Below, in pieces: positions 1,833-62,052 of a stretch of 64,000 nt of DNA. Position 1 is the stretch's first letter; every line of letters starts with the position of its first letter. Source of the DNA: an uncultured Eubacteriales bacterium (GTDB lineage: Bacteria > Bacillota > Clostridia > Oscillospirales > Acutalibacteraceae); assembly GCA_964627535.1 (NCBI GenBank), contig CAZVJW010000007.1, forward strand, positions 3,144 through 67,143, read 5' to 3'. The notes under the pieces are model-generated. The model made no database searches. It was not told the DNA's origin and was given only the letters and a program-made list of their open reading frames with translations. The position numbers and the translations under genes are program-made.

Positions 1833-3143
1833 TCACCCTTCCGCAAGTTCTTTACGACAGTCTGAAATATATTTATTCAGCTCGGTCTTCAACGCTTCCG
1901 GCATAAGTTTAATCAATTCCTCAGCCTTGACAAACTTGCCGTTTTCCGCATAAAGGCGAACCCTGAAAATGATGGAAAAGATATCCTGCGGTTTTTCAAA
2001 CGCCTTGTTTCTAAAGAAAGCAATCGCGTTATTATACTTTGATTCCGCAAGATTTGCATCCAGCACACTTTTGCCTGCGAGTTTCCTTGAGGCATAAGCG
2101 TCTGCATAAGTGGCAAAATACACATAGTATTCGTTTTCGCTCAGCTTCAGCTGTTCGGCAAGCTCGGCAGCTTCTTCGTACTGCTCTTTGCCGAAATAGC
2201 AGGACAGCTTAATGAATGTTGCTTTTTCTTTTGTCTGTTCATTTTGTTCAATGGTATCGACACTTGCCAAAGCATCGTCAAAACGTCCCAGTTTCAAATT
2301 GATCTCCGACTTGGAGAACGCAATGTTGACGAGGGTCTCAATCGGCAAATCCGGCGTAACCTCAAAGCCGGCAAGCAGACCCAAGGCTTCCTCGTAATAT
2401 TTTGCTGTATTCTCTTTATCTTTGTCCGCTCTCACAGCGGCAAGCATAACCTTGTCAAAAACCACATCGGCTACATTGGATATATCCGCGGCAATGTCTG
2501 CATAACTCTCTGCTTCGGCAATTACAGCTTCCGCTTTATCGTACTTGCCCATCGCGGCAAGAATCTGAAAGTAAATCTGGTAGCTTCGGAATTCTGCCGG
2601 GGCAAGCATCTTCAGCTGAATAGCATAGTTTTCGGCATGGGCGTAATCCTGTGACTCAATATAGAGTTGCAGACGCTTAAGCAATATTTCTTTGGTATCG
2701 TTATTAACCGGTCCGAAACTATCGCATTTATCGAAGTTCAGAAGAGCCGACTTTATATCGCCCATCATGTAGTTGATCATGCCGATTTGATAATACAGCT
2801 TTTGCATGGTTATGTCCGCACAACCGTATTGCTCGGCCTTCGCGTAATTCGCCAATGACTCACTAAACTTTTCAACTCCAAACTTGATGTTACCTAAATC
2901 AAAATACTTCACGCCGTTCGTTTCGTCATTCTCCACAGCTTTCTCCAAGAATCCTTCCGCATCCTGCAACCTGTCGAGAACAAGACACGCCTTGCCGGCA
3001 CCTGTGTATGCGTCCGTGTTTGACGGGTCCTTTGCGATAGCCTGCTCGCACAAATCCAAGGCAACATCATATTGCCCGTTTGTGAACGCCACCTCCGCAT
3101 TGGTCAGCAGCTCCTTAACCGCTTCGATATTGTTTTCGCTCAT
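1833..3143 (-). CDS. TPR-repeat protein, 436 aa
   Basis: Repeated 34-aa TPR-like units (..YDVALDLCEQAIAKDPSNTDAY.., ..ESLANYAKAEQYG..); RBS AAAGGAGAGG. Confidence 0.7.
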   Translation of the reverse strand: MSENNIEAVKELLTNAEVAFTNGQYDVALDLCEQAIAKDPSNTDAYTGAGKACLVLDRLQDAEGFLEKAVENDETNGVKYFDLGNIKFGVEKFSESLANYAKAEQYGCADITMQKLYYQIGMINYMMGDIKSALLNFDKCDSFGPVNNDTKEILLKRLQLYIESQDYAHAENYAIQLKMLAPAEFRSYQIYFQILAAMGKYDKAEAVIAEAESYADIAADISNVADVVFDKVMLAAVRADKDKENTAKYYEEALGLLAGFEVTPDLPIETLVNIAFSKSEINLKLGRFDDALASVDTIEQNEQTKEKATFIKLSCYFGKEQYEEAAELAEQLKLSENEYYVYFATYADAYASRKLAGKSVLDANLAESKYNNAIAFFRNKAFEKPQDIFSIIFRVRLYAENGKFVKAEELIKLMPEALKTELNKYISDCRKELAEG

Positions 3144-4433: not shown

Positions 4434-5000
4434 TTAGAATAAGTTTATTATTTCGGTTACCTGCGCCAATCGTTTCTCCATGTTATGTTTCTGAGAATTG
4501 AAGCCATTCAGTGCATTTTCGGCAGAACTTTTTTGATTTGCGTATTCGGCGCGGTTCCGGCTATTGGCTCGTTGGTTTCCTTCAGCGTTCTCTTTTGTCC
4601 GCTGTGCCTGACGGTATTGTGCTTGAGCCTCTTCCTTAGCCCGCGCATCAGACGTTTTATTCATCTCACGCTTATAATAATCCATGTTGTTGCTTGCATT
4701 ACGGATTGCCGACGAATAGTTTGTGCTGTCGCAAGCGCCGATTTTGGCATTCAGGTTATTAATAGTATTTTCGGCACTTGCAATACTCCTTTTCAGCTTA
4801 GCAATTTCCTGTTCCACACGGGATTTTTCTTTGCGGTACTCGCTGAGGGCTCCTTGTGTATTGGAGTCCTGCTTAACTGCAAAGATGCTGGAAAAATCAG
4901 CGCCGGCCATTCCACTGCACTTGATTGCACTCAGGAAAGTTGCTCCGACTGATTTTATGGAGTTGTTGGATGCGTTGATGCATTCCGATATAGTGGGCAT
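4434..5000 (-). CDS. Coiled-coil protein, 188 aa, Q/N/A-rich C-terminal half; possible N-terminal (LXG-like) carrier domain of a split polymorphic toxin
   Basis: RBS GGAGGT 7 nt upstream. The predicted helical coiled coil (EEAQAQYRQAQRTKENAEGNQRANSRNRAEYANQK) is in frame with 3210..4406, separated only by TAA + 9 codons. Confidence 0.45.
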   Translation of the reverse strand: MPTISECINASNNSIKSVGATFLSAIKCSGMAGADFSSIFAVKQDSNTQGALSEYRKEKSRVEQEIAKLKRSIASAENTINNLNAKIGACDSTNYSSAIRNASNNMDYYKREMNKTSDARAKEEAQAQYRQAQRTKENAEGNQRANSRNRAEYANQKSSAENALNGFNSQKHNMEKRLAQVTEIINLF

Positions 5001-5108
5001 TCGCTTTACCTCCGTTCAAGAATTTATTTGGTACGATGTGAACTTCCAAATGGAAATCTAAAAACTAAACTAAAGCACATTTTCAGGTAAATCGCTATCG
5101 AATCTGCT

Positions 5109-5775: not shown

Positions 5776-7473
5776 TTAGCATGCGTCTGAAATAACCAAA
5801 AACGGCAGTGTTGCCTTAATATTGAAACCTCCGCCGTTTGGTGAGCCGAAACTGAGCTTGCCGCCGAGCGAGTCGACTCTTTCTTTCATACTGTTGAGAC
5901 CATTCTTTGGTATAATATACTCGCAGCCTGCGCCGTCATCGGTGACGAAAAGCTTCAGCACGCCGTCTTCACTATGAAGTGTCACTGTAACATTGTTCGC
6001 ACGTCCATGCGCAAAGGAATTACTGATGGTCTCCTGGCAAATAAAATAGATTGTATCGCCAAGCTTTGTTTTGCTGATCTGACTGTCGTTTGCTATATTA
6101 TGAGAAAAATCAACATGCATCCCTTTGATCCGCAGTCTGTAAAACATGGTATCCAAAGCCGCTAACAAGCCTTTTTGCTCTATATCAATCGGCTTGAGCT
6201 CATCTACAATTCTTCTCAGTTGCACAAATGCCCCAATCGATTTATCATAGGAAATCCGCAGGCAGTCTTGAACCTCTTGAGTATCGGAAAAGTTGTTAAG
6301 CACATATTCCAGGTTGGAACTGATGACATTGATGCTGTTGCCCAGGCTATCGTGCAAATCATTCGAAACACGGTTCCTCTCGCTTAGCAAGGTTTGAATC
6401 CTGTACTCTGTCATATCCTTAAAAACAGCTAACTTTCCAATGGGTTTTTTACTTCCGGAATATAATGGTGAAATATTGACAGTATATTGTCTGCAGCCCT
6501 TTTTCGGCCAATACATAACCAGCGTGTCCTCATAAGCTTTATCTTGGTTCCCAGCCAACAGATTTACAATCTCGTCAATTTTGTTTTTATCTTCACAATA
6601 TTGATCCAGCGATTCAATTATTTTTCTGAAATCCACATATGGCTTACATACAGTTATTCCTTCGAAATAAAGATCGGCTGCCTCGTTGGATTCGATAATT
6701 TGCCAATTTGAATCGATAATAAACGCTGCTTCGTTCAATGTGGAAAAAATCTTTTGTGATGCCACCGGTATGATTTCTATCAAACGGTGTTTTAGGATAT
6801 ATACCGTGAGAACCACAAAAAAAACAGCTAAACTCGGCAGAGTCAGGTATATGCCGAGCTCCGTTAACGGTTTGACCATCACTTGTAAAATTTGAAGCAG
6901 GAGCGGCACACACACTGCAAGCGCCAACGGCCGAATACTTTTTTCCCCTCTACCTCGAAGCGTTCTGCCTATTAAAACAACAGCGGCAATGATGTAAAGA
7001 AATGAAAACACTTCACTGACAATCATCAGAATGCCCCAGACATCCTCATAACCGCCAAATTTTTTTGACTGTAGAACAAGATGAAAATACTTGAATGTAA
7101 ACAGAGGCCAGACACACAGCAGTTGCGGCAGCAGTACAAGAGAGATGATTTTGAGCTTGTTTCCTGAACTAATGATTCCGGAATAATAAAATGAAAAAAT
7201 TAGAAACAGCGCGCCTATGAACATAGTCGGCACCAAGGTAAGCCGAACATTAAAGTACATTTGCGCCTCACTGGAGGACATAAGCTCATTCATGTATAAA
7301 ATTATCCAAAAAATCAGGCAAAAATAAAATATTGTAAGACTGTAGAATTCCTGTGTCTTTTTTGCCCGGATAAAAATAATCGTGGCAGTCACGACGCACA
7401 AAATCAGCAAAGTCGCGTATGTCAACAAATTTAATTTCAAAACAAAGGTCAACAGCCTCACCCGATCCAACAA
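5776..7473 (-). CDS. Sensor histidine kinase, multi-pass membrane (about 7 TM), HisKA_3 + HATPase_c (ComP/DegS-like class)
   Basis: N-terminal ~230 aa of TM helices; H-box ..RNRVSNDLHDSLGNSI..; ATPase motifs ..VTDDGAGCEY.., ..LGGKLSFGSPNGGGFNI... Confidence 0.85.
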   Translation of the reverse strand: MLDRVRLLTFVLKLNLLTYATLLILCVVTATIIFIRAKKTQEFYSLTIFYFCLIFWIILYMNELMSSSEAQMYFNVRLTLVPTMFIGALFLIFSFYYSGIISSGNKLKIISLVLLPQLLCVWPLFTFKYFHLVLQSKKFGGYEDVWGILMIVSEVFSFLYIIAAVVLIGRTLRGRGEKSIRPLALAVCVPLLLQILQVMVKPLTELGIYLTLPSLAVFFVVLTVYILKHRLIEIIPVASQKIFSTLNEAAFIIDSNWQIIESNEAADLYFEGITVCKPYVDFRKIIESLDQYCEDKNKIDEIVNLLAGNQDKAYEDTLVMYWPKKGCRQYTVNISPLYSGSKKPIGKLAVFKDMTEYRIQTLLSERNRVSNDLHDSLGNSINVISSNLEYVLNNFSDTQEVQDCLRISYDKSIGAFVQLRRIVDELKPIDIEQKGLLAALDTMFYRLRIKGMHVDFSHNIANDSQISKTKLGDTIYFICQETISNSFAHGRANNVTVTLHSEDGVLKLFVTDDGAGCEYIIPKNGLNSMKERVDSLGGKLSFGSPNGGGFNIKATLPFLVISDAC

Positions 7474-9526: not shown

Positions 9527-9597
9527 TATAACCGACTTTATCCGGCCGGGATTTACAGATTATCGAGCCTATATTATATTCTTCCTCATCTGTGCCA

Positions 9598-9697
9598 TAC
9601 TAATTCACGATTAAAAACCTCTAAAAAATTAAGCAAAAGCTTTAATCTATAAGGTTTTGTGCGGATTTTTTAGTTAGGTTTTTATGAGTAATTAGTA
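9598..9697 (-). repeat. MITE-like ~100-bp element with terminal inverted repeats, copy 1 (inverted orientation)
   Basis: Rev-comp aligns end-to-end with copies at 13455 and 41056: tactaattactcataaaaacctaactaaaaaatccgcacaaaacc...aaagcttttgcttRattttttagaggtttttaatcgtgaattagta. Confidence 0.85.
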
Positions 9698-12574: not shown

Positions 12575-12707
12575 TACTAATTATTCATAAAAACCTAACT
12601 AAAAAATCCGCACAAAACCTAATAATACTATTCTGCATTAAAATGAAGAATCGTATGAATCAAAGCTTTTGCTTGATTTTTTGGAGATTTTTAATCGTGA
12701 ATTTGTA
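12575..12707 (+). repeat. MITE-like element copy 2 (133 bp; carries a 33-bp internal insertion)
   Basis: Same TIRs (tactaattattcataaaaacctaactaaaaaat ... atttttaatcgtgaatttgta). Confidence 0.85.
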
Positions 12708-12738
12708 TCAGTTGTTCAAGTACGATATTTGTATATTG

Positions 12739-13454: not shown

Positions 13455-13555
13455 TACTAATTACTCATAAAAACCTAACTAAAAAATTCGCACAAAACCT
13501 AATGAATCAAAGCTTTTGCTTGATTTTTTTAGAGGTTTTTAATCGTTAATTAGTA
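13455..13555 (+). repeat. MITE-like element copy 3 (101 bp)
   Basis: tactaattactcataaaaacctaactaaaaaattcgcacaaaacctaatgaatcaaagcttttgcttgatttttttagaggtttttaatcgttaattagta. Confidence 0.9.
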
Positions 13556-13570
13556 TTAGGTCCCTTTGAT

Positions 13571-16646: not shown

Positions 16647-16729
16647 AAAATAAATACCTCCTGTTGCGTTGCTGACTGAAATAGTATATATTAATTTTAT
16701 TAGTGATACAAGTCGAATCAATCAACTCA

Positions 16730-16828
16730 TACTGATTCACGATTAAAACCTCTAAAAAATCAAGTAAAAGCTTTTATTTATGCGGTTTTGCGTGGATTTT
16801 TTCTTAGGGTTTTTATGAGTGATTAATA
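16730..16828 (-). repeat. MITE-like element copy 4 (inverted orientation, more diverged)
   Basis: tactgattcacgattaaaacctctaaaaaat ... ttcttagggtttttatgagtgattaata; rev-comp aligns with the family consensus. Confidence 0.8.
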
Positions 16829-18102: not shown

Positions 18103-18138
18103 GTTACAATGGACACAGTCAAATGTGTCCATTGTAAC
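18103..18138. promoter_or_regulatory. Perfect 15-bp-arm palindrome (gttacaatggacaca-gtcaaa-tgtgtccattgtaac) immediately upstream of the DUF3592 gene; putative operator
   Basis: No T-run follows, so it is not a terminator. It overlaps the likely promoter/RBS region (GGAGG at ~18149-53). Confidence 0.45.
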
Positions 18139-18146
18139 TAATTTAT

Positions 18147-18611
18147 ATGGAGGCAAATAAATTGAAAAACTACAGGTCAGGCAGAGTTATCTCATTTATT
18201 TTTGCCGCGTTCTTTCTTTTCTTCGCGGTTTACGCAACCTATGACAGAGCCGGCTTTAAAAGCAATTCGATTGTAACACAAGGCAAGGTGGTGGACATCG
18301 TAACGGAATCCACCAGCAAAACGGACAGGGTTTTCATCTTTATTACGAGAAACATTGAAAAATCGATTATTGAGTACACGGATAAAAACGGGGACACTTA
18401 TACAAAATCGGAAGCGCCCTTTTTCAAAAAAGCACCATATGCGCTGAATGATACAGTAGATATCCGATACAATCCCGAATTCCCCGAATCCGGCATTGTG
18501 GACACTTTCACAAATCTTTTCGGATTTACGCTTCTGTTTTATTTCATCAGTTTTGTATTCTTTTTCGTGTTCTTCTATTTGAAAGTGATGCAAAAGGGGA
18601 AGAAGAAGTAG
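18147..18611 (+). CDS. DUF3592-family membrane protein (two TM helices flanking a beta-rich core)
   Basis: TM helices at both termini. The likely true start is TTG at ~18162, 8 nt after GGAGG. Confidence 0.6.
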   Translation: MEANKLKNYRSGRVISFIFAAFFLFFAVYATYDRAGFKSNSIVTQGKVVDIVTESTSKTDRVFIFITRNIEKSIIEYTDKNGDTYTKSEAPFFKKAPYALNDTVDIRYNPEFPESGIVDTFTNLFGFTLLFYFISFVFFFVFFYLKVMQKGKKK

Positions 18612-18628
18612 TAGTGGTCAGTGGTCAG
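18612..18628 (+). repeat. TAG + 2x TGGTCAG heptamer tandem directly after a stop codon
   Basis: tag|tag tggtcag tggtcag. Related arrays lie at 22201 and 24953. Confidence 0.8.
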
Positions 18629-18672
18629 ACGCTACCTGAAAGACACTTGAGCCTGAAAGGAAGGATATAATC

Positions 18673-19131
18673 ATGGCGAAAAAGACCTTTGAGGAAAAGC
18701 TGAATGACAACAGGGATATGCCGAAACTCATTGAGCTTGACGACCCGAAACAAATCAAACAGTACGGCGGTAAAATTATGCTGATAGCTCCACCTCTTGC
18801 TTATGACGCGATTATGAAACAAGTACCGAACGGTAAACTGATAACCGCCGACATCATCAGAAATTATTTGGCAAAAAAGCATGGCGCTGATTTCACCTGC
18901 CCGCTGACAGCCGGAATTTTTATGAACATTGTTGCCGGCGCGGCCGCAGAGCGGAAAACAGACGAAACGCCTTATTGGCGCACACTCAGAAAAGACGGTG
19001 AGCTCAACGAAAAATATCCGGGCGGAGTTGACGCGCAAAAACTGCATCTCGAAATAGAGGGGCATACCGTTATTCAAAAAGGCAAACGCTGGTTTGTGAA
19101 GGATTATAAAGAGAAATTGTTTGATCTGTGA
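18673..19131 (+). CDS. Hypothetical protein, 152 aa (possibly MGMT/Atl-like DNA-binding fold; unsure)
   Basis: Clean ORF with RBS GGAAGGA. No confident motif. Confidence 0.4.
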   Translation: MAKKTFEEKLNDNRDMPKLIELDDPKQIKQYGGKIMLIAPPLAYDAIMKQVPNGKLITADIIRNYLAKKHGADFTCPLTAGIFMNIVAGAAAERKTDETPYWRTLRKDGELNEKYPGGVDAQKLHLEIEGHTVIQKGKRWFVKDYKEKLFDL

Positions 19132-19155
19132 AGTTAAGAAGAAAAGAGAAAGTCT

Positions 19156-19559
19156 GTGAATATCGTTTACAAAGATACAAATGATTTTAACCCCGATGAT
19201 TTGCAGGAGCTGTTTTTGTCGGTTGAGTGGTCCTCCGGCCACTTTCCGGAAAAACTGGCAGTTGCGATGCAAAACAGCGGCACCGTTTTCTCGGCATGGG
19301 CCGGCGAAAACTTGTTGGTCTGATCAACGTTTTGGACGACGGTATAATGACCGCTTATGTTCATTACTTGCTGGTGAACCCGGAATATCAGGGCAAGGGC
19401 ATCGGCAAAGAATTGGTGCTTCTTGTAAAAGAGAAATACAAAGATTATCTCAGAACTGTTTTAATAGCGTATGATAAGGAAGCTGAATTTTACCGCCGCC
19501 TCGGGTTTGAGGCGGGAACCGGGAAAAGTCCGATGTTTATCACTTCGCTCTGGACTTGA
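19156..19559 (+). pseudogene. GNAT N-acetyltransferase disrupted by a -1 frameshift in an A-run (~19306-19311)
   Basis: A GTG-initiated frame (VNIVYKDTNDFNPDDLQELFLSVEWSSGHFPEKLAVAMQNSGTVFSAWAGE) runs into a stop at 19321. ORF 19227..19559 continues the same protein in the -1 phase (..KLVGLINVLDDGIMTAYVHYLLVNPEYQGKGIGKELV..). One extra A in gaaaac restores a ~134-aa GNAT. Confidence 0.7.
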
Positions 19560-19619
19560 GAATGGTTCGTCTGCGAAGCGGCATATGGTGCAATTTATTT
19601 CCTCAACAAAGGAGCAGTT

Positions 19620-19979
19620 ATGAAATACGGGTGGCTTGATGAATATTGCCTTTCGAAAAAAGGCGCCGAAAAAGATTTTAAGCCGGAATGGAACGCGACC
19701 CGCTACATGATAAGGGGTAAAATGTTCGCCATGCTTGGGGGCGATAAAAACGGGACGCCGATTATTACGGTAAAGCTGGAACCGTTGTTCGGCGAGCTTT
19801 TAAGAAAACAATATAAAGATATCATCCCCGGCTATTATATGAACAAGGAGCATTGGAACTCACTTTATTTGGACGGCGATGTTCCGGACGCTGTGTTGAA
19901 AGATATGCTGGATAAGTCATACAATATTTTGCTTGCGTCTTTCAGCAAAAAGGCGCAAAATGAGATAATCGCTGAGTAA
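19620..19979 (+). CDS. MmcQ/YjbR-family DNA-binding protein
   Basis: 119 aa; family-typical ..KMFAMLGGD.. and ..HWNSLYLDG.. Confidence 0.65.
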   Translation: MKYGWLDEYCLSKKGAEKDFKPEWNATRYMIRGKMFAMLGGDKNGTPIITVKLEPLFGELLRKQYKDIIPGYYMNKEHWNSLYLDGDVPDAVLKDMLDKSYNILLASFSKKAQNEIIAE

Positions 19980-20011
19980 CATATAACAGCCAACATCAAA
20001 CAAAGTAAGGA

Positions 20012-20440
20012 ATGGATATGATTATGGGCAAAGTTTTAAGGTCAAACAATATGAATAAATGCATCGGCTGCTTTACCTGCCAAAGGGTTTGCGCCGGCAT
20101 CAACCACAAGTCGTTTACCGACGATAAAAGCGCAATAAAAATACGTACACTTGGCGGATTATCCGGTAAGTTTTTTGCCACGCACTGCCTTGCCTGCACC
20201 GGGGACATCGCCTGCATGAATGCCTGCCCGACCGGCGCGCTGACGGAAAGACCCGGCGGCGGCGTGATACTCAATGAAAAGAAATGTATTCATTGCAAAA
20301 AATGCGCCGAAAGCTGTATTGTGAAAGCAATTTATTTTACCGATGACAACTCTCCGCCCATCATCTGCAAACACTGCGGAATCTGTGTAAAATATTGCCC
20401 CCACAATTGCCTGACCATGGAGGATAAGGACGATGCTTAA
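20012..20440 (+). CDS. 4Fe-4S dicluster ferredoxin-domain protein (AOR partner)
   Basis: Three CxxCxxCxxxC-type clusters (CIGCFTCQRVC, CIHCKKCAESC, CKHCGICVKYCP); overlaps the AOR start by 8 nt. Confidence 0.8.
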   Translation: MDMIMGKVLRSNNMNKCIGCFTCQRVCAGINHKSFTDDKSAIKIRTLGGLSGKFFATHCLACTGDIACMNACPTGALTERPGGGVILNEKKCIHCKKCAESCIVKAIYFTDDNSPPIICKHCGICVKYCPHNCLTMEDKDDA

Positions 20441-22196
20441 CGAAAACTATATTAAAGTCTTACATATAGACCTAACTTCCGGGAAAGTCAGTGTTGACCT
20501 GCGGGAAGACCTAAGAAAGTTTCTCGGTGGAGTCGGCGTTGCTTCGCAGCTGCTGTATGAAAACATGGTGTCATGGGAGGACCCGTTGTCCCCTGTGCAG
20601 CCGATCGTTTTTGCTATCGGCGCGCTGAGCTCAATCTTCCCGGTTGTTACCAAAACCGTTGCGATGTTTATCTCGCCTGTTACCGGAGAATTGGGGGAGT
20701 CTTACGCCGGCGGAAGATTTGCTTACACCATGTTCAACGCTGGTATAGACGCGCTGGTCATCAAGGGCAAGGCGAAAAATCCCTGTTATATAACCATTAA
20801 CAATAACCGCATTGATATTAAGGACGCCCGTGCTTTTTGGGGGCTTCATGCCAATCAGGTGGGGCAATACATCAGGACGGTCGAGGGCGGGCAGGGCAAA
20901 CGCTCAATCATCCGAATTGGGCCTGCCGGAGAAAACCTGTGTAAAATCGCGAATGTCAATGTGGATACCTACCGGCATTTCGGCCGCATGGGGCTTGGCG
21001 CCTTATTCGGCAGCAAAAATTTAAAGGCAATTCAGGTGACGGGGGATGTCACAAAGGAGATAAAAGACCAAAAGAAATACCTCAAGGTATATAATGAGAT
21101 TTTTAACAAGGTGACGGACACCAAGCTGATGACAAAATACCATGATCTCGGCACACCGATCAATGTCAATGTTTTAAATATCATCGGTGCGCTGCCTGTC
21201 AAAAATCTTCAGGAAGCGCATGTCGATGATGCCGAAGGTATCAGCGGTGAGCATTTTGCCGAGAGAAATCTTATTAGAAAAATAGCCTGTGTCGGCTGTC
21301 CGGTAGGCTGCGTACACATTGGGCAAGTCAGGCGTGAATTTGATACAGGGCATGAATATGAAACCTTGAATGTCGCTTACGACTATGAACTGATTGCAAC
21401 ATTGGGATCAAACTTAGGGATAACCGACAGCGACTCGATTTTGGAACTGATAGACGCGGTGGAAGAATACGGGCTGGACGCGGTCGCGGGCGGAATCTGT
21501 CTGGCATATGCAACAGAGTGCTTCGAAAAGAAGATTGTTACGGAAGAAGAAACGATTGTTCCGCTGGAATTCGGCAATAAAGAAAACTATCTGAAGGCTA
21601 TAAAATTTATGGCGGCCAAGGAAAACGATTTTTATGCCGCATTGTCAGACGGCGTCGCGGTGGCATCGAAGAAATACGGAGGCGAGGAATTTGCCGTATC
21701 CATCGCTAAAAACGAAATGCCGGCGTACCATACCGGCTACGGAGCAATAGTTGGATATAGCTGCGGTGCAAGGCACAGCCATTTATGCAACGGCGGTTAT
21801 TCTTATGACCAGACAAACAAAGAATTTAACAAGCAGAATATTGTTGACAGCATATTTGAAGAAGAAGTCAAGCGCTGCGTTTTGAATTCGCTTATCATCT
21901 GTCTTTTCGCCAGGAATGTGTATGACAATGCGACAATACTCTCCGCGCTGGACGCAATCAGCGCAATCGGACCCGAGAACCTGAATGACGAATATTTGGA
22001 GCAGTTAGGCCTGCGGATCTATAAAACCAAATTAAAGATTAAAGAAGCGCTGGGGTTTGACCTTTCGAAAATCCAGATATCAAAACGAGTTTTCAGCACA
22101 CCGGCAATGGGGAATGTGTTGGATGAAGACACTGCACGGGAAATGATTGAGATGTTCAAGCAAAAGGACGAGGAATTGCTTGCTTCGGAAATCTAA
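20433..22196 (+). CDS. Aldehyde:ferredoxin oxidoreductase (tungsten-type AOR family)
   Basis: 587 aa; AOR_N and AOR_C signatures (..LGGVGVASQLLYE.., ..CVGCPVGC..). Confidence 0.8.
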   Translation: MLNENYIKVLHIDLTSGKVSVDLREDLRKFLGGVGVASQLLYENMVSWEDPLSPVQPIVFAIGALSSIFPVVTKTVAMFISPVTGELGESYAGGRFAYTMFNAGIDALVIKGKAKNPCYITINNNRIDIKDARAFWGLHANQVGQYIRTVEGGQGKRSIIRIGPAGENLCKIANVNVDTYRHFGRMGLGALFGSKNLKAIQVTGDVTKEIKDQKKYLKVYNEIFNKVTDTKLMTKYHDLGTPINVNVLNIIGALPVKNLQEAHVDDAEGISGEHFAERNLIRKIACVGCPVGCVHIGQVRREFDTGHEYETLNVAYDYELIATLGSNLGITDSDSILELIDAVEEYGLDAVAGGICLAYATECFEKKIVTEEETIVPLEFGNKENYLKAIKFMAAKENDFYAALSDGVAVASKKYGGEEFAVSIAKNEMPAYHTGYGAIVGYSCGARHSHLCNGGYSYDQTNKEFNKQNIVDSIFEEEVKRCVLNSLIICLFARNVYDNATILSALDAISAIGPENLNDEYLEQLGLRIYKTKLKIKEALGFDLSKIQISKRVFSTPAMGNVLDEDTAREMIEMFKQKDEELLASEI

Positions 22197-22200
22197 AAAG

Positions 22201-22228
22201 TGGTCAGTGGTTAGTGGATAGTGGTCAG
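22201..22228 (+). repeat. 4x heptamer tandem TGGTCAG TGGTTAG TGGATAG TGGTCAG, 4 nt after the AOR stop
   Basis: Direct reading of the sequence. Confidence 0.85.
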
Positions 22229-22294
22229 CACATTCAAGATAATAGAATCCCTATGAAAAAGTGGGTTTACGATGAATAGTAAAAGGAACAAAGC

Positions 22295-22753
22295 ATGAAC
22301 AGTCAAAAACCAAAGGTTGCTTTCATCTGTGTGCATAATTCCTGCCGGTCACAAATTGCGGAAGCGTTAGGCAAACACTTTGCCGGCGATGTTTTTGAAA
22401 GTTTTTCCGCGGGAACCGAAATGAAACCGCAAATCAATCAGGATGCCGTGCGGCTGATGAAAGAGCTTTATAATCTTGATATGGAGAAGACTCAATACTC
22501 AAAACTTACTTCGGCTTTGCCGCCGGTAGAGGTGGTTGTTACCATGGGCTGTAATGTGGAGTGCCCGTATTTACCGGCAAAAATGCGGGAGGACTGGGGG
22601 CTTGACGACCCCACCGGCAAGAACGATGAGGAGTTCAAAAAAACAATAATAATCATAGAGAAAAAGATAAAAGAATTAGCCGAAAAGTTAAATAAATTGA
22701 ATCGCCGATTATTTGCAATCATTGCTGTAACCGGCGATATCTTTATGCTATAA
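22295..22753 (+). CDS. arsC: Arsenate reductase, LMW-PTP/thioredoxin-coupled type
   Basis: Catalytic loop ..VAFICVHNSCRSQIAEA..; ~150 aa. Confidence 0.8.
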   Translation: MNSQKPKVAFICVHNSCRSQIAEALGKHFAGDVFESFSAGTEMKPQINQDAVRLMKELYNLDMEKTQYSKLTSALPPVEVVVTMGCNVECPYLPAKMREDWGLDDPTGKNDEEFKKTIIIIEKKIKELAEKLNKLNRRLFAIIAVTGDIFML

Positions 22754-22768
22754 TGCTCTCAAGTACTT

Positions 22769-23863
22769 TTGGAGGCGAAAACAGTATTGTCTCATAACAA
22801 CAATAAACAAAATATCAGCAAAGCAACCGCAGCTATATTAATGGCTGTTTTGGCTGCTGCTTTGTACGGTATCAGCGCACCGGTATCAAAGCTGCTTCTT
22901 GTGAAAATCCCGCCGGCTTTAATGGCGGCGCTTTTATATCTGGGCGCCGGGCTCGGCATGCTGGCAGTCAACCTGCTGAGAGTTTGGAACAAAAAAGAGC
23001 GGATAGAAGCAAGGATGACAAAAAAGGAAATGCCGTATGTTGCCGCGATGATTATCCTTGATATCGCCGCACCGATACTGCTGATGGCTGGCCTGAAAAC
23101 AGCAACGGCGGCGAATGTCTCGCTTCTCAATAATTTTGAAATTGTCGCGACCTCGCTGATTGCGCTGTTCATCTTCAAAGAGGCAATCGGCAAACGGATG
23201 TGGCTGGCTATTACCCTGATAACGGTTGCGAGCATCATTTTATCCGTGGAGGATTTCAGCAGCTTTTCTTTTTCAGCAGGCTCTGTTCTTGTGCTTGCTG
23301 CCTGCGTTTGCTGGGGGTTCGAAAACAACTGCACAAGAAAGCTTTCCATAAGAGACCCGCTGCAGATAGTTGTGGTCAAGGGCTTTGGCTCCGGGATCGG
23401 TTCGCTGATTATTGCCCTCGCGGCTAAAGAATTCAGCAGTAATATACGGTATATCCTGCTTACCCTGCTGCTGGGTTTTGTCGCTTACGGGCTGAGCATA
23501 TTCTTTTACATTTCTGCGCAGAGAGAACTCGGCGCTGCAAGGACAAGCGCGTTTTACGCCGCTGCACCGTTCATCGGCGTTCTTATTTCGTGGCTGGTTT
23601 TCAGCGATAAAATCTCGCTGTTATTTATCATCGCGCTTGTGATTATGCTCACCGGCACCTATTTCGCGGTGTTTGAAAACCACAAGCATTCGCATGTTCA
23701 TATGCAGGAAGTTCATGAGCATAAACACAGCCACCTTGACGGGCACCATAATCATGCGCATGATACAGAAATAATCGGAGCGCATACTCATAAGCATACC
23801 CATGAAAATATTGAGCACAAGCACGCGCATACGCCGGACATTCATCACAGGCACAAGCATTAA
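22769..23863 (+). CDS. EamA/DMT-family permease with a ~60-aa histidine-rich C-terminal tail
   Basis: Ten predicted TM helices; the tail is HEHKHSHLDGHHNHAHDTEIIGAHTHKHTHENIEHKHAHTPDIHHRHKH. The start is uncertain (track TTG at 22769, alternative TTG at ~22787). Confidence 0.65.
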   Translation: MEAKTVLSHNNNKQNISKATAAILMAVLAAALYGISAPVSKLLLVKIPPALMAALLYLGAGLGMLAVNLLRVWNKKERIEARMTKKEMPYVAAMIILDIAAPILLMAGLKTATAANVSLLNNFEIVATSLIALFIFKEAIGKRMWLAITLITVASIILSVEDFSSFSFSAGSVLVLAACVCWGFENNCTRKLSIRDPLQIVVVKGFGSGIGSLIIALAAKEFSSNIRYILLTLLLGFVAYGLSIFFYISAQRELGAARTSAFYAAAPFIGVLISWLVFSDKISLLFIIALVIMLTGTYFAVFENHKHSHVHMQEVHEHKHSHLDGHHNHAHDTEIIGAHTHKHTHENIEHKHAHTPDIHHRHKH

Positions 23864-23883
23864 CATTTTGAGGAGAATGACGG

Positions 23884-24951
23884 ATGATTTTTGATGATTT
23901 GGCAAACCGCAAACTGCCCCCGGTTCTGGCGGAAAAAACCACAGCGGAAAACTGGCCGCAACGGCGCAAAGAGCTGTTGGAACTCCTCGCAAGGGAAGAA
24001 TACGGTTTTTCACCGGAACCGCCGCCAAGCGTTGAAGCGGTTATAAACCGCGTTGAAGACTGGGCATGGGCAGGCAAAGCCGAACACAGGCAAGTGAACC
24101 TGAAATTTCAAACCCCTAAGGGTGAATTTTCCTTTCCGGTGGATTTTGTATTACCGAAAAGCGAAAAGGATCTGCCGCTGTTTATTTATATATCCTTCAC
24201 CAAGTATCCTGTCGGCAAATACGGCCCGATTGAGGAAATTATAGACGGCGGGTATGCCATGGCTATATTCAGCTATGAAGATGTGACGCTGGACGAAGAT
24301 GACAGTTTTACCTCCGGTTTGGCGGCCATGTATGACAGAACCGGCGACGGCGCGGATTGGGGTAAAATAGCCATGTGGGCGTGGGCAGCGAGCCGCGTAA
24401 TGGATTACGCACTCACGCTGCAACAAATCGACAAAAACCGCATCTTCTGCGCCGGCCATTCGCGCCTTGGAAAAACTTCACTTTGGTGCGGCGCGCAGGA
24501 CGAACGCTTCGCGGCTGCCGTTTCCAACGATTCGGGCTGCAGCGGGGCTGCGATTACAAGGGATAAAGAGGGCGAAAGGGTTAAGGCAATCACCACCAAT
24601 TTTCCGCACTGGTTTTGCCAAAACTATCAAAAATACAGAGAAAAAGAGCATGAGATGCCCTTTGACCAGCATCAGCTGCTCGCGTTGATAGCGCCGCGTC
24701 CGGTATATGTAGCGAGCGCATCGGAGGATATTTGGGCGGACCCGCAAAGCGAGTTTTTGGCATGCTTAGCGGCGAGTGATGCTTACAAACTGCTGGGAAA
24801 AAAGGGATTTATGCATGAAGACCGAACTGTTGAACCGGGCGAGTTTTTGCATGAAGGCAATATCGGTTACCATCTGCGCCCGGGTCCGCACTTTTTAAGC
24901 CGTTACGACTGGCAAATGTTCATGCGGTTTATGGATAAGCACTTGCGCTGA
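23884..24951 (+). CDS. Alpha/beta hydrolase, CE15 glucuronoyl-esterase-like
   Basis: Nucleophile motif ..CAGHSRLGK.. (compare CE15 G-C-S-R-x-G); 355 aa. Confidence 0.5.
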   Translation: MIFDDLANRKLPPVLAEKTTAENWPQRRKELLELLAREEYGFSPEPPPSVEAVINRVEDWAWAGKAEHRQVNLKFQTPKGEFSFPVDFVLPKSEKDLPLFIYISFTKYPVGKYGPIEEIIDGGYAMAIFSYEDVTLDEDDSFTSGLAAMYDRTGDGADWGKIAMWAWAASRVMDYALTLQQIDKNRIFCAGHSRLGKTSLWCGAQDERFAAAVSNDSGCSGAAITRDKEGERVKAITTNFPHWFCQNYQKYREKEHEMPFDQHQLLALIAPRPVYVASASEDIWADPQSEFLACLAASDAYKLLGKKGFMHEDRTVEPGEFLHEGNIGYHLRPGPHFLSRYDWQMFMRFMDKHLR

Positions 24952-24952
24952 G

Positions 24953-24976
24953 TGGTTAGTGGCTAGTGGTCAGTGG
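24953..24976 (+). repeat. 3x heptamer tandem TGGTTAG TGGCTAG TGGTCAG (+TGG), 1 nt after the stop codon
   Basis: Direct reading of the sequence. Confidence 0.85.
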
Positions 24977-25016
24977 AACGTAGGGGCGACCTTTGTGTCG
25001 TCCGTAATCCCCGGGC

Positions 25017-41055: not shown

Positions 41056-41155
41056 TACTAATTACTCATAAAAACCTAACTAAAAATTCCGCATAAAACC
41101 CCATAAATCAAAGCTTTTGCTTGATTTTTTAGAGGCTTTTTATCGTGAATTAGTA
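41056..41155 (+). repeat. MITE-like element copy 5 (100 bp), abutting the stop codon of the regulator gene
   Basis: tactaattactcataaaaacctaactaaaaattccgcataaaaccccataaatcaaagcttttgcttgattttttagaggctttttatcgtgaattagta. Confidence 0.9.
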
Positions 41156-42277
41156 TCAGTTATGTTGTTTTTCTTTCTTTGCATAGGGCTTATATTTTTC
41201 AAAAATCGTCTTAAATCCGTCCGTTTTCCCAATATCACCGTTACCAAAATGCAAATCTAAAATTTCAAGCTCTCGTGCTATTTCATTTTGACTTTCTCCG
41301 CAACATATTTTCATCATATCATCTGTAATGGTATCAACTAAAAACGAAGTGTGCTTTGATATCGTTGGTAACTCATCGTATGCTTTACCATAAGCTAACC
41401 CTTTATCAAGATAGTCAAAAGCCGTATTATATTCCTTCAAATCTAAATACCTATATGCAATCCAAATATTGAGTTCACACAGATTGTAGAAATCAAAGCC
41501 GTAATCGCCATCATCATATATTAAGTTCAATAAATCTACAGCTTTCTGAAGAATACGAATTCTAGTTTTTGCATCGGCTTTTGAATGCAATGCACAGTTC
41601 CTGATTTTTACCATCAGACATTCGGTAAGATTTTTGATGTTCTTTTGAACACATGGAAACCACTCTTCTGTGCCCCGAACATAAATGTTTTCCATTTCTT
41701 CGTCTGCCGTAAAATAATAATGTTCAGGGAAACGCTTGGCGGTTTCTATTGCTTTTTCTATGTTGCCATCAAGGCAATATAGGCTGCTCAAAATCGAAAG
41801 TGCGCTGTATCTAGGCTTGTCGAGCCGACACTCATCAAACACTCTATCGCACAGTTTGTATAGTTCCTCCTTATGAACCTCGTTTCCGTAAGGTGCTTCT
41901 TTACAATTTGGGTCATAAGTAAGCTGCCACATATATTCATCGACTATTCTGAAATCGTTGGGGAATTCTTTATATGCGGTACACATTAAATTGTATTTTT
42001 CCATGCTTTTTCCGAGTGCGGAAAGTTTGCGGAATTCACTTAAATAGTTTTCTATCTTTTCTTCATTTTTCGCCGCGTCAAGCCCGAGCAACTTGTCGGT
42101 TGTTACACAAAAATAGCTTGCAAGCGGAAGAATCATTGTGATATCGGGATAGGTTTCATTTCTTTCCCATTTTGACACGGCTTGCGTGCTGACATTAAGA
42201 TGCTCCGCCAGCTTTTCCTGCGTGATATTTTTATCGCGGCGCAGACGCTTGATGTTTTCTCCAATACAGATATTCAT
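41156..42277 (-). CDS. HTH-XRE + TPR-like regulator, RRNPP (Rgg/PlcR/NprR-like) architecture
   Basis: N-terminal ..IKRLRRDKNITQEKLAEHLNVSTQAVSKWERNETYPDITMILPLASYF..; ~300-aa helical-repeat C-terminal domain. Confidence 0.6.
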   Translation of the reverse strand: MNICIGENIKRLRRDKNITQEKLAEHLNVSTQAVSKWERNETYPDITMILPLASYFCVTTDKLLGLDAAKNEEKIENYLSEFRKLSALGKSMEKYNLMCTAYKEFPNDFRIVDEYMWQLTYDPNCKEAPYGNEVHKEELYKLCDRVFDECRLDKPRYSALSILSSLYCLDGNIEKAIETAKRFPEHYYFTADEEMENIYVRGTEEWFPCVQKNIKNLTECLMVKIRNCALHSKADAKTRIRILQKAVDLLNLIYDDGDYGFDFYNLCELNIWIAYRYLDLKEYNTAFDYLDKGLAYGKAYDELPTISKHTSFLVDTITDDMMKICCGESQNEIARELEILDLHFGNGDIGKTDGFKTIFEKYKPYAKKEKQHN

Positions 42278-59282: not shown

Positions 59283-59383
59283 TACTAATCCATCTTAAAA
59301 ACATAGCTAAAAATCTGCATAAAACCCCATAAATCAAAGCTTTTGCTTGGTTTTTTTAGAGGTTTTTTAATCGTGAATTAGTA
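59283..59383 (+). repeat. MITE-like element copy 6 (left TIR degenerate)
   Basis: tactaatccatcttaaaaacatagctaaaaatctgcataaaaccccataaatcaaagcttttgcttggtttttttagaggttttttaatcgtgaattagta. Confidence 0.8.
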
Positions 59384-59389
59384 TGACTG

Positions 59390-61930: not shown

Positions 61931-62020
61931 TACTAATTACTCATAAAAACCTAACTAAAAAATCAGCATAAAACCCTATAAATCAAAGATTTAACTTAGC
62001 TTTTTAATCGTGAATTAGTA
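61931..62020 (+). repeat. MITE-like element copy 7 (90 bp, central deletion)
   Basis: tactaattactcataaaaacctaactaaaaaatcagcataaaaccctataaatcaaagatttaacttagctttttaatcgtgaattagta. Confidence 0.85.
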
Positions 62021-62052
62021 TAAACTGCCCGCTGAGTGTATGAGTTATTTTC

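Follow-up and report, generated by a model that had tools for sequence, protein, structure and literature searches.

Why should the same short tandem repeat stand directly behind the stop codons of three different genes? The question is raised by a 64,000-nt stretch of DNA from an uncultured Eubacteriales bacterium of the family Acutalibacteraceae (assembly GCA_964627535.1, contig CAZVJW010000007.1, positions 3,144 to 67,143), referred to here in its whole length as the window, in which arrays of the heptamer TGGTCAG and close variants of it (TGGNYAG) begin 0–4 nt after the stops of three plus-strand genes. With moderate confidence, the arrays are read here as short, imperfect heptanucleotide simple sequence repeats (SSRs) belonging to a scattered class of intergenic heptamers: young insertions after stop codons that are decaying and that have a weak effect at most.

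A sequence-only reading of this DNA had reported the three arrays, and direct reading, a regular-expression search and Tandem Repeats Finder (TRF), which called a period of 7 for each of them, bear the report out (Table 1). Exactly three arrays are present, all on the plus strand; the regular expression, run on both strands, matched none in the reverse complement. The two-unit pattern TGGNNAGTGGNNAG has six matches in the window against 0.05 expected from dinucleotide-preserving shuffles, and the three-unit pattern three against 0.00. With the shuffles so far below the observed counts, and with a sense-strand adjacency to stops that recurs in two independent public collections (see below), the description of the motif as recurrent, non-random and position-specific holds.

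Each array is non-coding: it follows a stop codon and ends before the next start, within a block of co-oriented genes (16900–40932). Array 1 follows a DUF3592-like open reading frame (ORF; 18147–18611) that scores 24.7 bits against Pfam, just below the cutoff of 25.3. Array 2 follows the gene for an aldehyde:ferredoxin oxidoreductase (AOR; 20433–22196; AFOR_N and AFOR_C at 212 and 201 bits) and array 3 that for a CE15 glucuronoyl-esterase (23884–24951; GCE_fung, 113 bits). The next plus-strand starts lie 44 nt from array 1 (ATG at 18673), 66 nt from array 2 (ATG at 22295) and 78 nt from array 3 (25055, a start placed by alignment to relatives). By Pfam the genes downstream are unrelated to one another, and they retain normal Shine–Dalgarno sequences of the GGAGG/AAGGA type. 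As in long heptanucleotide SSRs, the units are joined head to tail beyond chance expectation in non-coding DNA; the basic unit is TGGTCAG (or AGTGGTC in another register), with point variants in TTAG, ATAG and CTAG.

Gain of the arrays relative to close relatives

The loci around AOR orthologues at 89–94% identity were compared with the window (L121/L122, L123/L124, L245, L246 and L247), and junctions were mapped with blastn and MAFFT. These five close relatives share the upstream genes and carry no arrays: none of at least two units was found on either strand of loci L121–L124 or L245–L247, although synteny is kept. Further, each window array coincides with an indel or a gene-content junction relative to them. 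Array 1 lies between the DUF3592 gene, missing in L123, and a gene for a 152-aa protein, missing in L121; the position of the DUF3592-like stop is kept in L121, but the codon is TAG in the window and TGA in L121. The position of the AOR stop is conserved, and array 2 is absent behind it in L121, L123, L245, L246 and L247, where the DNA 3' of this stop is different in almost every relative; the ArsC-like gene 3' of array 2 is absent in L121 and L123. At the third site, a segment of about 35 nt that contains both the TGA and array 3 is missing in L123/L124, so that the ORF there continues into a hairpin that is conserved as GGAACGAC-CCCTGT-GTCGTTCC and that stands just 3' of array 3 in the window. 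The CE15 stop of L121 is where the window has it, and no array follows.

Position at junctions or indels, together with absence from the relatives, means that the arrays are recent gains. The alignments show them to be lineage-specific insertions 0–4 nt from a stop codon in a region of rapid gene-content change. As they are absent from five close relatives, a sequence-specific function in this window is unlikely, and whatever function the arrays have here is probably weak.

Some features of the region itself deserve mention. Compared with L121, L123, L245, L246 and L247, the segment 18147–24951 has seen frequent gain and loss of small genes around a ferredoxin–AOR pair, the variable genes being those for DUF3592, the 152-aa protein, YjbR, the ArsC-like protein, EamA, a CsoR-like repressor and CE15; no integrase and no attC-like site was detected in this variable block. 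The best named homologues of the window AOR are those of Treponema sp. metagenome-assembled genomes (72–75% identity), so that, judged by this single gene, the host would be Treponema-like. In L123 (14010–14082) and L124 (6589–6661) the CE15 ORF has lost the stop that the window and L121 have, and extends 10 codons through the hairpin GGAACGAC..GTCGTTCC. In the ArsC/low-molecular-weight-phosphatase-like ORF of the window (22295–22753) the Pfam domain stops at residue 128, and the last ~22 codons (22689–22753) cross DNA that is intergenic in L121/L123 and carries a hairpin and a TATAAT there. The absence of this gene from L121 and L123 could reflect either a shared deletion in the relatives or the insertion of a gene without its own stop.

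Units and polarity in other bacteria and phages

The pattern (TGGNNAG)x4 was scanned in viral contigs and in bacterial contigs with one genome per species, with at least 120 rows in each. Hosts among the matches listed include many Acidobacteriota, Planctomycetota, Chloroflexota and Cyanobacteria, as well as Bacteroidota, Verrucomicrobiota, Patescibacteria, Clostridia and one Treponema sp. (L134). Among the units counted in matches listed, the commonest are TGGTCAG (216 of 1029), TGGCGAG (107 of 1029) and TGGCCAG (74 of 1029), and TGGTTAG is also common. A full-text literature search for the literal repeat strings gave no relevant paper. AGTGGNN is an undescribed but very widespread unit family, with members in eight phyla or more and in the tail operons of phages.

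Some contigs are dense with arrays. One of them is a phage tail module with tail completion gp17 and tail protein T (L009 1–10085, IMGVR_UViG_3300047586_000106). Nearly every intergenic gap in it has the order stop, (AGTGGNC)n, short spacer, (GNCCACT)n, start, and the reverse-complement arrays abut the next ATG without a Shine–Dalgarno sequence. Judging from the repeats, such paired arrays would form long hairpins that bring stop and start together.

Polarity was scored by the presence of a long ORF ending between −15 and +9 nt from the array edge, a test that is crude but symmetric between orientations. In the viral set (n = 211 arrays listed) TGGNNAG arrays followed a same-strand stop 64 times against 26 in the opposite orientation, and in the genome set (n = 148 arrays listed) 47 times against 15. 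Random positions score 3–4%, and the ratio is stable at ORF thresholds of 100, 150 and 200 codons. With one vote per contig, among the matches listed, the ratios are 31:12 in the viral set (p = 0.005) and 33:6 in the genome set (p = 1.4e-5). Also among these matches, the complementary orientation is enriched upstream of starts, and an inverted partner lies no more than 120 nt away for 16–36% of the after-stop arrays. As so few are paired, unpaired arrays such as those of the window are the usual form.

Since the first pattern itself fixed TGG..AG, a control scan of viral contigs with (TNNTCAG)x4 freed positions 2 and 3 (loci L248–L355). Among the matches listed, 72% of these arrays are heterogeneous, and the units are TAATCAG, TTATCAG, TGGTCAG, TGATCAG, TTTTCAG and TTGTCAG. 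Such sister units stand 43:22 in favour of the after-stop orientation, with their complement 41:15 before starts. Units with one G and one C show the same polarity, so that G-richness does not explain it; the counts for single units are small, and arrays of one contig are not independent of each other. Moreover, in 64 arrays picked by periodicity alone, deviations from the consensus occur at all seven positions (3.5–14%) and are mostly G>A or C<>T. An invariant AGTGG core with two free positions was considered and dropped, as the control scan proved equally rich and heterogeneous and the unselected arrays vary at all seven positions; there is therefore no protected five-base core. What emerges looks like a picture of many related heptamer repeats decaying by point mutation, with unit variation as the mutational decay of slippage repeats.

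Origin and role of the arrays

Taken as SSRs, the arrays join a class that comprises the long SSRs described by Mrazek and colleagues, the cyanobacterial STRRs, the GGGNATC-type repeats of Xanthomonas and Nostoc and the TAACTGA repeats of Beggiatoa. Arrays of this kind would arise by insertion, slipped-strand expansion or both in the untranslated bases that immediately follow a gene, and would at times supply the stop codon themselves. They would be co-transcribed with the 3' untranslated region or the intercistronic spacer and then decay by transitions, and an orientation-dependent tolerance at the RNA level could give rise to their polarity. In the window they may have at most a weak effect that does not depend on their sequence, as an unstructured spacer 3' of the stop codon.

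Several observations weigh against this interpretation. A flank-anchored metagenome scan gave no second strain of the array loci and no unit-number polymorphism; slippage is something that we infer. At the second site, 27 nt of unique sequence arrived together with array 2 between two copies of a 9-nt direct repeat, AAAAAGTGG, which is more insertion-like than local expansion, the significance of the bracketing repeat being post hoc. All six deviations from TGGTCAG in the nine units of the window fall at positions 4–5; under uniform decay this has a probability of about (2/7)^6, a post hoc figure that hints at constraint or at a non-slippage origin. The polarity is present even in units without G/C skew, which neutral slippage alone does not explain. 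Finally, in L014, L144 and L109 the arrays form part of longer dispersed repeats, in which flanks or loops outside the heptamers are conserved (Table 1), which suggests array-containing units able to spread whole.

The dispersed repeats in L014, L144 and L109 and the bracketed segment of array 2 also favour the idea that the arrays were left by, or are the termini in, a process of mobility or recombination analogous to REPIN- or MITE-like elements, in which a site-targeting mechanism would insert small gene cassettes or short segments just behind stops. So do the junctions at which every array lies, the variable DNA behind the AOR stop in nearly every relative and the closeness of all three insertions to a stop. 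However, no flanking sequence is common to the three window arrays, and no consistent cassette structure is apparent, as an array stands at the 3' edge of the variable DUF3592 gene but at the 5' edge of the ArsC-like gene. Further, gene content also changes at these junctions in the relatives, which have no arrays; a scan of ten neighbouring proteins turned up neither an integrase nor a transposase, and no attC-like hairpins were seen (fold z-scores −1 to +1). Unlike integron attC sites, the intergenic segments that hold the arrays are no more foldable than shuffled sequence (z = +0.2 to +1.0). A mobile origin is regarded as unlikely. A similarly low probability is given to the proposal that heptamer arrays are a general, quadruplex-independent and transcript-polar module of bacterial and phage operons, with ..TCAGT../AGTGGNN at stops and the complement ..ACTGA.. 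at starts. Such a module could come about through an ORF-end-targeting mechanism, or through strong selection linked to ribosome release and re-initiation, and the window would represent its earliest stage, with single short after-stop arrays freshly inserted at gene-content breakpoints. The exact placement at stops and gene-content junctions may be due either to targeting or to selection only. A role as a cis-regulatory direct-repeat site in the DNA, that is, an operator or promoter element of the downstream gene comparable to the TTTTGAT heptads of Vibrio cholerae ctxAB or to SARP repeats, is improbable. Heptamer direct repeats are known binding sites in other systems, the arrays do lie 44–78 nt upstream of the next start, and array 2 can serve as the −35 element of one weak sigma-70-like match (TGGATA-17-GATAAT, 9/12 matches). 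Yet promoter-like matches are not enriched in the region (21 against 15.9 ± 4.4 expected), a properly spaced −10 element is lacking for arrays 1 and 3, and in the relatives the downstream genes are retained although the arrays are absent. In addition, the strand-specific tracking of stop codons across genomes suggests that the transcript matters, not the DNA duplex. For the protein-binding site that the sequence-only reading had offered as an alternative, then, neither conservation, nor a function shared by the unrelated downstream genes, nor a consistent promoter geometry was found.

No Rfam family matches anywhere in the window at gathering thresholds, and no terminator is predicted between stop and array. 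Neither the arrays nor the intergenic regions around them fold better than shuffled sequence, a result that speaks against terminators, attC-like sites and riboswitch-like elements. In the 60 nt after arrays, 18% of sequences have z < −2, compared with 10% after array-less stops (Mann–Whitney p = 0.42). An array serving as a spacer between stop and terminator hairpin was also considered; this is true of array 3 and is not general. The sequence-only reading had described the array as an all-frame translational stop buffer, in which a TAG every 7 nt would fall in all three reading frames and halt ribosomes in any of them. Arrays 2 and 3 do each put TAGs in two frames, array 1 adds a tandem in-frame TAG, and the stop codon itself is supplied by the array or insertion in array 3 and in distance-0 cases elsewhere. 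However, the plus-strand frames closed number one, two and two for arrays 1, 2 and 3, so that no array closes all three. Three of the four commonest units among the matches listed (TGGTCAG, TGGCGAG and TGGCCAG) have no stop on the TGG..AG strand, and the CTGACCA strand, with a TGA every 7 nt, is found before starts and not after stops. The lack of arrays in the close relatives also counts against a buffer, which is accordingly held to be very improbable. No more credible is a G-quadruplex regulatory repeat of the kind proposed for the heptamers GGGAATC and GGGGAYT. The positional rule is identical, arrays 2 and 3 have four GG tracts, and a preference for four units has been published for that family (PMC4692102). 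In the ViennaRNA G-quadruplex model, however, the window unit, with G tracts of only 2 nt and loops of 5 nt, comes to +12.8 kcal/mol, and the minimum-energy structures of the window arrays contain no quadruplex; in the same model the units from Xanthomonas and Nostoc do form one, at −8.4 and −30.6 kcal/mol. Array 1 has two GG tracts only, and sister families with a single G per unit show the same polarity. The model thus shows the window unit to be incapable of forming a predicted G-quadruplex.

In many bacteria no long simple repeats are more abundant than the heptanucleotides. The present locus gives a pairwise view of gain, with arrays in one lineage, 0–4 nt from the stop, and none in five close relatives. 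If polarity reflects a mechanism, it bears on translation termination, operon coupling and the building of intergenic DNA. If it does not, the arrays can still serve to mark recent rearrangement and to caution annotators.

Other repeats are present in the window. The sequence-only reading had noted no comparable pattern after minus-strand genes, which stands for TGGNYAG; but a different 21-nt motif, TTTTTAATCGTGAATTAGTAT, occurs in the window in seven copies at no more than three mismatches (0 expected), mostly 10–50 nt past the stops of minus-strand genes. Two copies are preceded, at 13505–13535 and 59332–59362, by a hairpin and T-run (AATCAAAGCTTTTGCTTGATTTTTTT) that would terminate plus-strand transcripts. 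A dispersed promoter/terminator module is one possible reading of the motif, a small repeat element another. At 18103–18138, between the URO-D-like and DUF3592 genes, lies a palindrome of 36 nt that is near-perfect and has a 15-bp stem (GTTACAATGGACACA..TGTGTCCATTGTAAC), with a diverged copy at the equivalent place in L246; its sequence has the look of an operator or of a terminator working in both directions. At 300–581, inside the ORF 263–895, is a 72-nt tandem repeat (3.9 copies, 93% identity); its unit is in frame (24 codons), and the encoded protein is therefore repetitive.

Table 1. Coordinates of the arrays, associated repeats and other repeated elements
Feature	Sequence	Position	Strand	Remark
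Array 1	TAG + TGGTCAG x2	18612–18628 (units 18615–18628)	+	Direct read; directly 3' of TAG stop 18609–18611
Array 2	TGGTCAG TGGTTAG TGGATAG TGGTCAG	22201–22228	+	Direct read; AAAG separates array from TAA stop 22194–22196
Array 3	G + TGGTTAG TGGCTAG TGGTCAG + TGG	24952–24976 (units from 24953)	+	Direct read; after TGA stop 24949–24951
9-nt direct repeat, left copy	AAAAAGTGG	22195–22203	+	Direct read; overlaps AOR stop codon and first TGG
9-nt direct repeat, right copy	AAAAAGTGG	22256–22264	+	Direct read; 61 nt from left copy
Hairpin	GGGGCGAC-CTTTGT-GTCGTCC	24983–25003	+	Just 3' of array 3, which stands between stop and hairpin
21-nt motif copy	TTTTTAATCGTGAATTAGTAT	9597–9617	-	Motif match
21-nt motif copy	TTTTTAATCGTGAATTAGTAT	12688–12708	+	Motif match
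21-nt motif copy	TTTTTAATCGTGAATTAGTAT	13536–13556	+	Motif match
21-nt motif copy	TTTTTAATCGTGAATTAGTAT	16729–16749	-	Motif match
21-nt motif copy	TTTTTAATCGTGAATTAGTAT	41136–41156	+	Motif match
21-nt motif copy	TTTTTAATCGTGAATTAGTAT	59364–59384	+	Motif match
21-nt motif copy	TTTTTAATCGTGAATTAGTAT	62001–62021	+	Motif match
Dispersed array-containing repeat, L014	TTCGACCTCTCACT	686–780 and 2026–2119		Conserved flank/loop
Dispersed array-containing repeat, L144	TTCGCATGYGGAGATTA	4915–5010 and 6082–6180		Conserved flank/loop
Dispersed array-containing repeat, L109	AAAAAGATTTTT	6988, 8278, 8823		Conserved flank/loop

Known heptamer systems

A 7-nt period on a transcript is familiar from the HutP site on the hut mRNA of Bacillus subtilis, in which UAG triplets, in two sets of three with 4-nt spacers, stand next to a terminator. 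The window arrays likewise present NAG at a 7-nt period on the transcript strand. However, the triplet is mostly CAG, the UGGN spacer is conserved whereas the HutP spacers are not, and the arrays form one set only; further, no terminator is adjacent to arrays 1 and 2, and the arrays are not conserved in the relatives. Neither a terminator/antiterminator context nor a HutP gene was identified, though no search aimed at the gene was made. A HutP-like NAG-N4 site was dropped as a candidate, as were a Chi-like sequence and anti-Shine–Dalgarno pairing, with variable and conserved positions that do not fit and arrays that are not conserved.

The STRR heptamers of cyanobacteria, CCCCAGT, TTGGTCA and CAACAGT, were reportedly described by Mazel and colleagues in 1990. 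TTGGTCA, the unit of STRR2, differs by one base per unit from the window register GTGGTCA, and both are tandem intergenic heptamers. The window arrays nevertheless belong to a different host phylum, their unit is not identical and they are much shorter. Three heptamers are on record for Calothrix PCC 7601 (cited in PMC4692102).

According to the summary in PMC4679880, Mrazek, Guo and Shah (2007) found that heptanucleotides dominate among the long SSRs of many prokaryotes, and proposed polymerase slippage as the origin. The long SSRs of that summary (units of 5–11 nt) are, like the window arrays, longer than chance, mostly heptanucleotide, non-coding and phylogenetically sporadic. They form a generic class, and neither stop-codon polarity nor the TGGTCAG unit is part of the description given in that summary.

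MacGregor (2015, PMC4679880) described TAACTGA repeats a few nucleotides upstream of starts in marine Beggiatoaceae and in some Cyanobacteria and Bacteroidetes, and proposed that they replace the ribosome-binding site. They too are strand-specific intergenic heptamers of patchy phylogeny, with 2–6 copies per set, and they share ACTGA with the complement of the window unit (CCACTGA). The complement of TAACTGA, TCAGTTA, which is TTATCAG in register, is one of the sister families of the control scan. The difference is one of side: TAACTGA abuts starts in the sense orientation, whereas the window arrays are of the opposite strand type, abut stops, lie 44–78 nt from the next start and have normal Shine–Dalgarno sequences downstream. 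Arrays of TTATCAG are common in IMG/VR contigs, as are those of TAATCAG (at least 243 units), and the distribution of TAACTGA as published is probably far too narrow.

The sequence-only reading could not assign the motif to a known class; such a class exists, since tandem 7-nt repeats in intergenic DNA that obey precisely this rule of placement are on record (PMC4692102; see also PMC4679880 and the work of Mrazek that it cites). The repeats of Rehm et al. (2015, PMC4692102), GGGAATC from Xanthomonas and GGGGA(C/T)T from Nostoc PCC 7120, are runs of 2 to ~26 imperfect units, with four preferred, that are over-represented in non-coding DNA between co-oriented ORFs, are mostly transcribed and occasionally form inverted pairs. 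Where they overlap a stop or lie no more than 50 bp from one, the sense strand is the G-rich one; upstream of ORFs it is the antisense strand. The authors credited G-quadruplexes for these properties (PMC4692102). The window arrays and the TGGNNAG family follow the same rule, sense after stops and complement upstream. The hosts are different, and increased stability was reported around the repeats of Rehm et al., whereas the window arrays lie at variable junctions. Above all, those repeats have tracts of three or four Gs, while TGGNYAG has GG only and is predicted to form no quadruplex. What is new here is that the stop/start polarity extends to units incapable of quadruplexes, which undercuts the G-quadruplex explanation of the polarity.

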